Shown here: piece after piece, positions 2,053 through 2,442 of the stretch
Numbering within the stretch: position 1 is the stretch's first letter
Layout of the letters: every line of letters starts with the position of its first letter
IMG/VR virus record: IMGVR_UViG_2695420687_000017
DNA length: 3,410 nt
Direction: 5' to 3' (one strand)
From: a virus
Taxonomy: Duplodnaviria; Heunggongvirae; Uroviricota; Caudoviricetes
Notes under the pieces: generated by a model
Databases searched by the model: none
The model's input: only the letters and a program-made list of their open reading frames with translations
What the model was told of the DNA's origin: nothing
Made by a program: the position numbers and the translations under genes

Positions 2053-2139
2053 TTATCCCCAGCGGAAAAGCGAATACAGAATAAATGCCACCGCTATTGC
2101 AACTCCAACTGCGGTGAATGCTTCAGGCCAATTCATCAT
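2053..2139 (-). CDS. Small hydrophobic ORF not in the supplied track, 28 aa from the first ATG (27 aa from the second): [28 protein letters not shown]; predicted single-pass membrane peptide
   Basis: Found by hand translation. First ATG (2139-2137) overlaps the TGA stop of the chimeric ORF in an ATGA arrangement typical of translational coupling. Second ATG (2136-2134) lies 7 nt downstream of a perfect GGAGG (2148-2144, part of GGAGGTGA at 2148-2141). About 20 consecutive hydrophobic residues followed by RWG. Stop TAA at 2055-2053, 4 nt before the next gene's ATG. Confidence 0.35.
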
Positions 2140-2442
2140 TTCACCTCCTGCGGCGGTTCTGGTAGCTGCATCCAGTGGGTTACCTCTTTGAGATACAGGT
2201 CTTCGCCATCACCGTCATCCCAAGTGGGCTTGCCATCATTAAACCAGTCGCCATATACGCCGACCTGAGTGTTGGGGATGTTTGGTGGGTAGTTGTTTTT
2301 AAAGTCAGCTGCTAACACATAGCATTGTCGCTCTCCCATTTCAGGCATTCGCTCACTACAGCTTATCCAACCATCCGGAGTTGCCGGATAGTTGCCATTC
2401 ACAAGGTCAGCTCGAACATATAGCGTGTCATCATGGTGTTCT
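2136..2442 (-). other. Phage-derived DUF551-like domain segment forming the 3' ~100 codons of the chimeric ORF
   Basis: Motifs [20 protein letters not shown] and [11 protein letters not shown] match my recollection of the conserved start and end of the DUF551 domain found in lambdoid early-region proteins. The native N-terminus and start codon of this phage gene are not present. Family assignment is from memory, not a search. Confidence 0.5.

Follow-up and report, generated by a model that had tools for sequence, protein, structure and literature searches.

Enterobacteria encode a number of small single-pass inner-membrane regulatory proteins, i.e. AcrZ, MgtS, PmrR, MgrB, KdpF and CydX. Proteins of the AcrZ/MgtS type are shorter than 50 amino acids (aa), are composed of essentially one transmembrane helix, are routinely missed by gene callers and act by packing against a larger membrane protein. 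In this work, we focused on a small gene (minus strand, 2053..2136) located in a stretch of 3,410 nucleotides (nt) of Caudoviricetes DNA (IMG/VR record IMGVR_UViG_2695420687_000017), this whole stretch being hereafter called the window. Its predicted product, hereafter the peptide, shares the size, the single helix and the annotation history of these proteins, and by analogy it may bind a partner as they do; unlike them, it is phage-encoded, it belongs to an early phage operon and no sequence similarity to them was detected. We conclude from comparative sequence data that this small open reading frame (ORF) is a genuine protein-coding gene whose frame, length, start and ribosome-binding site are under purifying selection. 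This widespread phage gene is almost never annotated and has been essentially overlooked, and its predicted product would be an addition to the known class of small phage and bacterial membrane micro-proteins. With a probability of roughly 0.55, we consider that this gene of the early leftward accessory operon encodes an inner-membrane micro-protein with a single span, translated in coupling with the upstream gene, which would pack against a membrane protein or against itself.

Three other groups of small proteins bear comparison with the peptide. Type I toxins (Hok/Gef, including hokW of 933W, TisB, DinQ with its 27 aa, ShoB and IbsC) are likewise small and hydrophobic. The likeness to Hok extends to translation, as that of the peptide would be tied to an overlapping upstream frame like that of hok to mok, and to location, as the gene adjoins hokW/sokW in 933W-type phages. 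The peptide differs from type I toxins in being encoded within a polycistronic operon and in being rich in small residues, and no antisense RNA, own promoter or structured leader was found for it in the window. Lambda Kil, KilR of Rac and DicB are soluble inhibitors of cell division, encoded by small accessory genes that are dispensable for plaques; they match the peptide in operon class and in expected timing, whereas the peptide is almost purely membrane helix and has no homology to them. Finally, the coat protein of Pf3, a 44-aa virion structural protein of a filamentous phage, is the model for YidC-dependent N-out/C-in insertion. It resembles the peptide, again with no homology, in its very short acidic N-tail, its single hydrophobic span and its basic/aromatic C-flank (..RW..), an analogy which suggests the same insertion route and topology for the peptide.

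The genomic region is also known from other phages, the exo-xis region being one that is reported to influence lysogenisation and prophage induction in lambda and in Shiga toxin (Stx) phages. The small gene lies between exo and xis, as do orf60a, orf61, orf63, orf73, ea22 and ea8.5, with Ea22-like, TraR-like and DUF551 neighbours. No membrane peptide figures among the exo-xis products described so far; the small gene would add a membrane-active candidate to this poorly understood accessory region. The literature on the region deals with Ea22, orf60a/61/63/73 and DUF551-containing Ea22 variants, and the papers searched (PMC10834534, PMC8614690) mention neither the ORF nor any transmembrane product. 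Removing the exo-xis region from Phi24B was shown to reduce the expression of host degP and htpX (PMC10789677). A link between the peptide and this envelope-stress effect was considered and discarded, because Phi24B does not carry the peptide and has a different cassette after its DUF551 gene.

The small gene comprises 27 codons followed by a TAA stop (2055-2053) and starts at the second of two consecutive ATG codons (2136-2134). The first ATG (minus strand, 2137..2139) opens a longer form of 28 codons (2053..2139, minus strand) and forms an ATGA together with the stop of the upstream ORF (TGA, 2138-2136); the second ATG shares its A with this TGA. A hydrophobic ORF of 27/28 aa with an ATGA overlap on the upstream stop was what the initial annotation had described, and it is indeed seen in the sequence and in the ORF list. 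The Shine-Dalgarno (SD) sequence GGAGGTGA (minus strand, 2141..2148; the plus strand reads tcacctcc) is located where the upstream ORF encodes its final residues (..Q-E-V-K), a single A separating it from the first ATG. The end of its GGAGG lies 7 nt from the second ATG and 4 nt from the first, in agreement with the earlier view of a perfect SD best spaced for the second ATG. No earlier in-frame start codon occurs between the two ATGs and the preceding in-frame stop, and the local RNA fold near the start contains weak structure only.

Homologues in other phages begin at the position of the second ATG (M-[T/N/S]-W-P-E...). The codon of the first ATG is GTG, or stands in another register, in some A-type alleles, so it is probably not the conserved start. 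Based on SD spacing across the family contexts, we take the second ATG as the conserved start, and the product is most likely of 27 aa. As for the coupling to the chimeric upstream ORF that had been claimed, the overlap holds, the product is likely the 27-aa form of the two proposed, and neither DUF551 nor the chimera is required for such coupling, which is seen with other upstream genes as well. Considered alone, a 28-codon ORF is not beyond chance, since the window contains 66 ORFs of at least 20 aa; the case for a gene therefore rests on comparative data.

A tblastn search of phage genomes with the peptide, the conservation check that had been proposed, retrieved 99 records with identities from 100% down to ~50%, the alignments beginning at the second Met. 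Five diverged loci were inspected and displayed the same 27-codon frame with an ATGA overlap onto unrelated upstream genes. In addition, IMG/VR was scanned with two independent degenerate DNA patterns, one corresponding to an N-terminal seed and the other to a C-terminal seed. With the N-terminal seed (M-[N/T]-W-P-E-A-F), 110 of 127 viral matches (~87%) comprised exactly 27 codons ending with Y..RWG, and these represented 53 DNA alleles and 32 peptides. With the C-terminal seed (Y-S-x-[C/F]-R-W-G-stop), the same start position was found in ~130 of 137 matches (~95% with exactly 27 codons), variation of the N-terminus being confined to M-[TNS]-W-[PST]-[ED]-[AV]-[FLI]. Damaged copies, i.e. with a frameshift, an in-frame deletion or a lost stop, were few among the matches of the scans. 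Bacterial genomes scanned with the 21-nt N-terminal pattern served as a negative control: they gave 120 mostly chance matches, with ORF lengths scattered from 7 to at least 200 codons and few hydrophobic products, of which two were the 27-aa peptide. The chance matches included a conserved Atopobium gene, and no taxonomic breadth was gained.

The matches of both scans were combined into a set of 151 viral loci, chosen for having the 27-codon frame and corresponding to 73 DNA alleles and 49 peptides. The start codon is ATG in 149 of these loci and GTG in two; in both of the latter, the GTG directly follows a TAA and the SD GGAGGGGG stands upstream. The stop/start overlap reads ATGA in 124 of the 151 loci, while 16 have TGATG. 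Each of the 39 distinct 25-nt upstream contexts contains an SD-like motif; it is nearly always GGAGG and usually stands 7 or 10 nt before the homologous ATG.

The substitution pattern is that expected of a coding frame. Within the N-terminal-seed set, the ratio of nonsynonymous to synonymous polymorphism (pN/pS) over codons 8-27 is 0.42 in frame, versus 0.92 and 1.87 in the shifted frames, and the mean pairwise differences at codon positions 1, 2 and 3 are 0.17, 0.10 and 0.29, respectively, the third position varying most. The nonsynonymous/synonymous ratio was also counted along a minimum-spanning tree limited to codons 8-20, left unconstrained by either search pattern: it is 0.47 in frame (binomial P=2e-6), versus 1.07 and 1.89 in the shifted frames. 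In these same codons, 9 of 73 replacements involve a charged or strongly polar residue or Pro, compared with a random expectation of 31% (P=1.6e-4). Furthermore, the ORF is 72-86% identical among the window, ArgO145, Av-05 and 933W, while identity falls to 50-63% in the 100-nt flanks and shuffled sequence gives 54-57%. The ORF is thus an island of identity amid unrelated flanks, which argues that it is conserved in its own right and not through linkage. Loss of the frame in relatives had been named as the outcome that would speak against a gene; what was found is that frame, length, start and ribosome-binding site are kept with an excess of synonymous change. It is a clean case of a 27-codon gene established by comparative data alone.

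Beside this core, hydrophobic ORFs of 23-34 aa that share the M-[N/T]-W-P-E-A-F head and have other C-termini, e.g. MNWPEAFAYVGIAFAIAWALRNI, were noticed at seven loci (L014, L062, L100, L022, L112, L118 and L102); the gene upstream of the L062 variant is homologous to 933W p77. To judge from these sequences, the family may reach beyond the 27-aa core, and some of the 23-34-aa variants could be chance matches.

The peptide is predicted to contain one transmembrane segment, residues 6-24 (minus strand, 2065..2121), flanked by W3-P4-E5 on one side and by R25-W26 on the other. Its Kyte-Doolittle mean is 2.28 over 19 residues and its summed value on the Hessa scale is -0.9 kcal/mol, the three main subtypes ranging from ~-1.7 to +0.2 kcal/mol; hydropathy thus agrees with the single transmembrane helix that the initial annotation had proposed, in the form of one hydrophobic segment of helix length. 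Residues M1, W3, G11, A15, Y21, R25 and W26 are invariant, and the list of invariant or near-invariant residues comprises M1, W3, P4, E5, A6, G11, A13, A15, A17, Y21, S22, C24, R25 and W26, the window type having F at position 24. The aromatic and charged residues that flank the predicted helix are W3/E5 and Y21/R25/W26. Two other kinds of product were considered and rejected. A lipoprotein or a cleavable signal peptide does not fit, because Y-S-I-C does not match a lipobox, the window variant has F in place of C and only three residues follow; a holin, a pinholin or another lysis-cassette protein does not fit either, the gene being located in the early leftward operon beside xis/int and not in the late lysis cassette.

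The reading that we prefer, i.e. a coupled inner-membrane micro-protein, would work as follows. The ATG of the small gene overlaps or abuts the stop codon of whichever gene stands before it, and ribosomes would initiate at the SD as translation of the upstream ORF terminates, the two events being coupled. From this coupling and from the position in the operon, the peptide would be made early upon infection or induction and would be silent in the repressed lysogen. It would then enter the inner membrane as a single-span micro-protein in the manner of the Pf3 coat, with W-P-E outside and R-W-G inside, and act there as a non-essential accessory factor. The series G11/A13/A15/A17, together with the W-P-E and Y...R-W ends, would favour helix-helix packing over non-specific membrane damage. 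The function had initially been left open between a toxin, an exclusion factor and a modulator; our analysis leans, from sequence features, to a modulator of a membrane protein and gives less favour to a Hok-type toxin.

Several points weigh against this reading. Most of the sequences compared come from closely related Escherichia phages, so that independent events are fewer than alleles. Conservation is not focused on one face of the helix (moment 0.11, P=0.43) and therefore does not indicate a single partner interface. The N-out/C-in orientation is weakly predicted, by analogy, from one Arg on the C side and one Glu on the N side. The peptide string does not occur in the supplements searched, those of two translatome papers on enterohaemorrhagic E. 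coli (EHEC), and the Sakai ribosome profiling screen took only ORFs of at least 30 aa (PMC5597208).

A more ambitious version of the micro-protein reading, which we hold to be rather unlikely, is that of a widespread early effector aimed at a specific host inner-membrane protein via the W-P-E head and the G/A-rich helix. Possible targets of such an effector are a DNA-entry transporter, a component of division or envelope stress, and a membrane-bound defence effector. If this were true, Stx-converting and other Escherichia phages would use the peptide in counter-defence, in taking over the host or in excluding superinfecting phages, and it would represent a very common and so far unrecognised phage-host module, too short for gene callers to report although about a quarter of complete E. 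coli genomes have it.

Among the rival explanations, the one that survives best, although we regard it as improbable, is a membrane-damaging or host-killing toxin, similar to type I toxins (Hok, TisB, DinQ) or to an early-left Kil function, which would depolarise or permeabilise the inner membrane upon induction or infection. The peptide has the size and hydrophobicity of DinQ/TisB-class peptides, its gene is located in the early leftward operon alongside kil, and a toxic gene could be maintained if it were repressed in the lysogen. Moreover, hokW/mokW/sokW stand 153-154 nt downstream in 44 of the 151 loci, and a translation coupled to the upstream frame recalls that of hok and mok. This hok adjacency is, however, just one among many downstream contexts. 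A crude consensus scan of positions 1300-2600 of the window on both strands detected no promoter-like or terminator-like site, hence neither a promoter of its own nor an antisense promoter, and no Rfam family matched the region of the small gene. A regulatory leader would have no room, the upstream gene being overlapped and the next gene lying 4 nt away. In composition, the peptide is rich in Ala, Gly and Val, its small residues are conserved and it lacks a charged tail, in contrast to the Leu/Ile-rich toxins with a charged tail, and no toxin model of Pfam, NCBIfam or PADLOC matches it. The presence of the gene in the virulent phage Av-05 also counts against a Hok-type toxin. The lack of a promoter, an antisense promoter and a leader, the helix rich in small residues and the lack of a toxin-model match are the reasons why we favour a modulator. 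In either case, modulator or toxin, the peptide would bear on the induction biology of Stx prophages and on annotation practice; if it were neutral, little would be lost. At present, the result stands as a solid annotation correction and an experimental lead, with no new mechanism.

A less probable alternative is that the peptide is dedicated to the DUF551-type protein encoded upstream, as its partner or as its membrane anchor, translational coupling fixing the stoichiometry of the two. The ATGA overlap is nearly universal, and 94 of 114 upstream ORFs fall in a single mosaic cluster in which DUF551 proteins occur. The upstream genes, however, do not form one family: at least five unrelated gene ends precede the small-gene cassette. 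Many of them end in a DUF551 domain and others in an unrelated 'LPDKAM..YLxRNGLISVEDVLR' tail; the coiled-coil protein p77 of 933W, Av-05 gp123, a 114-aa protein of ArgO145 and the L064 protein also precede the cassette, none of them with a DUF551 domain, and most upstream genes other than the DUF551 type have no Pfam domain. Conversely, the peptide follows only 26 of 80 close DUF551 relatives, the others being followed at the same junction by unrelated cassettes, and both Phi24B and K-12 (YfdS) have DUF551 without the peptide.

The possibility of a functionless passenger frame kept by linkage, or of a mere ribosome relay to the downstream gene, appears very unlikely to us. No phenotype is on record, the copies are mostly found in closely related Escherichia prophages and, in the window, the ORF bridges DUF551 and DUF4222 with overlapping signals. 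Against this stand purifying selection in this frame only with conservative replacements, the constant length over the alleles and peptides of both seeded scans, and the preservation of the frame as an island between unrelated flanks. In addition, many loci have no downstream gene to which ribosomes could be relayed, the peptide gene being followed by a convergent gene or a terminator-like hairpin, e.g. in 666R9 and ArgO145.

Finally, we give hardly any credit to the idea that the ORF is not an independent gene and represents either a C-terminal membrane anchor added to the upstream protein by programmed frameshifting or a cis-acting nucleotide element (mosaic boundary or RNA structure): 140 of 151 loci do share one register (-1) between the peptide and the upstream ORF and the junction sequence CAGGAGGTGAATCAATGA does recur at module boundaries, but (i) the different upstream 3' ends have no slippery heptamer in common, (ii) other registers exist, with the upstream stop at +11, -38 or -52 from the start and, in one variant, a TAA followed by GTG, (iii) the start codon and the SD are conserved, a change from ATG to GTG included, and (iv) a nucleotide element, for which no Rfam family match was found, does not predict that third codon positions vary most and that omega, the nonsynonymous/synonymous ratio, is below 1 in this frame alone.

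Regarding its distribution, the peptide gene was found in the classic Stx phages 933W, VT1/VT2-Sakai and BP-4795, and in Av-05, a virulent phage of the rV5-like type. Searching with 73 nt of internal ORF sequence located it at no fewer than 2251 places in at least 1283 of 5426 complete E. coli genomes (about a quarter), with up to 6 copies per genome. The position of the ORF is an unannotated gap in BP-4795 (GenBank and RefSeq), Stx1_14040, ArgO145, Min27, Av-05, 666R9, 933W and Stx2 phage I. Among E. coli genomes annotated by the NCBI Prokaryotic Genome Annotation Pipeline (PGAP) and sampled across the set, nothing is annotated over the ORF itself in 40 of 40, the DUF551 gene extending 8 nt into the probe in four of them, and the gene calls of large public assemblies leave an empty gap of 87 nt. 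The earlier supposition that the gene goes unannotated because it falls below the length cut-off of ORF callers is therefore borne out by every homologous record inspected and by the PGAP sample: the NCBI pipeline passes over the gene, cut-offs of the Prodigal type shut it out, and Pfam, PHROGs and NCBIfam hold no family for it.

Protein databases contain traces of the peptide. Three GenBank records, all named 'hypothetical protein', contain exactly the 27- or 28-aa sequence. When 5.8 billion protein clusters were queried with a 40-aa translation extended at the N-terminus, only six clusters were returned, which are hypothetical, mostly with upstream starts (43-47 aa), or labelled 'DUF551, partial'. 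The label 'DUF551 domain-containing protein, partial' of NCBI records P0003 and P0009 was rejected as a description of the peptide, since it arises from the overlap with the end of the neighbouring gene; the DUF551 profile (PF04448) matches the upstream ORF and not the peptide. No significant match for the peptide was obtained in Pfam, PHROGs v4, NCBIfam, PADLOC or the PDB: the best PHROG is phrog_4612 (E 0.0011, 7 of 20 members, not significant), and the Pfam matches to DUF883_C and B12D are far under threshold. The peptide strings were not found in the text of the papers searched.

Some existing calls lie over the gene or close to its place. Min27 ORF82 (L005) and Stx2 phage I ORF-38 (L300) are ORFs of 573-750 nt annotated on the other strand, across from the peptide gene and the gene upstream of it; both calls are probably spurious and hide the small gene. 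In Phi24B (L390), a 23-aa coding sequence, vb_24B_5c VDNSWCVVETVTLDAATGTAAGG, is annotated at 2840-2911 (minus strand) in an alternative frame within the 3' end of the DUF551 gene. This frame is the one by which some pipelines lengthen the peptide ORF to 43-47 aa, and vb_24B_5c is probably not a gene.

Within the window, the upstream ORF (minus strand, 2136..3410; TGA at 2138-2136) is composed of lacZ (3410..2441) and of the last 100 aa of a DUF551 protein of phage origin (2440..2139), its frame being open as far as the window edge. It matches Pfam LacZ_4 and DUF551 (the latter with E 3.9e-20) in one open frame, so the chimeric nature attributed to it earlier is correct. The junction lies at 2440|2441, the phage match stopping at 2440 and the lacZ match beginning at 2441. 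Up to 2440, where the window is of phage origin, it shares 92-100% identity with Stx1a phages, BP-4795, VT1-Sakai and many EHEC prophages. Within the chimera, the DUF551 portion is 100% identical to EHEC prophages, while the lacZ part has only 89.2% nucleotide identity to E. coli lacZ, and the lacZ/DUF551 junction is absent from the complete E. coli genomes searched. The small gene itself is identical to a common A-type allele. The lacZ'::'DUF551 join may have arisen by genuine rearrangement in an Escherichia-like host other than E. coli, or else during assembly as a chimera. The natural upstream gene being replaced by this fusion in the window, the peptide would be expressed there, if at all, via lac transcription; if the join is real, such transcription would run into the peptide, DUF4222, xis and int genes.

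The small gene is followed on the same strand by a gene for an 80-aa DUF4222 protein (1806..2048), which starts 4 nt past its stop and whose own SD (AGGA) is situated inside this gap. Further downstream, still on the minus strand, are a 44-aa ORF (1668..1802), a DUF1233 excisionase gene (1395..1649) and the gene of a 428-aa integrase (75..1361), all three belonging to the same transcription unit as the small gene. In intact prophages, the order is cIII, kil, gam, bet, exo, DUF1317, DUF1382, TraR-like, Ea22, DUF551, [peptide], DUF4222, xis and int, and the prophages carrying this order sit integrated beside mlrA. As judged from the layout of the region, the small gene is part of the leftward early operon and has no promoter or terminator of its own. 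In K-12, no homologue of the peptide occurs in CPS-53, where the DUF551 protein gene yfdS is followed by yfdT, nor in Rac, which has the same integrase type.

Downstream contexts differ among the 151 loci. Besides hokW/mokW/sokW, DUF4222 is found at 4 nt in 26 loci, and the remaining contexts vary, with convergent genes or other ORFs. As a consequence of the hokW adjacency, 933W-type phages (L299, 1501-1950) have two small membrane-peptide genes side by side, i.e. the peptide ORF and mokW/hokW/sokW. At other loci (L351, L369 and L379, at ~900 in each, and L372), the slot just after DUF551 is occupied by other short hydrophobic ORFs that overlap the DUF551 stop, such as a 28-aa MPPVKVVIITLVMIVIARIMSGEIGWIW and a 40-aa MDKCNALLYAMVIGFGLAAGIRVYITWESLINLAWSAIRG; small membrane-peptide cassettes thus seem to gather in this slot as in a hot spot. 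The final DUF551 codons (..P-Q-E-V-[K/N]..; 2141-2152 in the window, minus strand) encode GGAGGTGA and supply the ribosome-binding site for whichever cassette comes next. The ..E-V-N-Q end is common to DUF551 genes and to the unrelated p77 protein of 933W, and the stretch ..E-V-N-Q / GGAGGTGA looks, from these sequences, like a recombination boundary.

Two further small genes were observed in the same early operon. Between DUF4222 and xis, the 44-aa ORF, which is ORF3 in the BP-4795 annotation, has a match to phrog_3871 (E=1e-32); it is a second very small conserved gene of the operon. Finally, in one E. coli chromosome (L384, 2442-2525, plus strand), the annotation has another, different gene of 27 aa, placed between that of DUF1382 and a 71-aa ORF.

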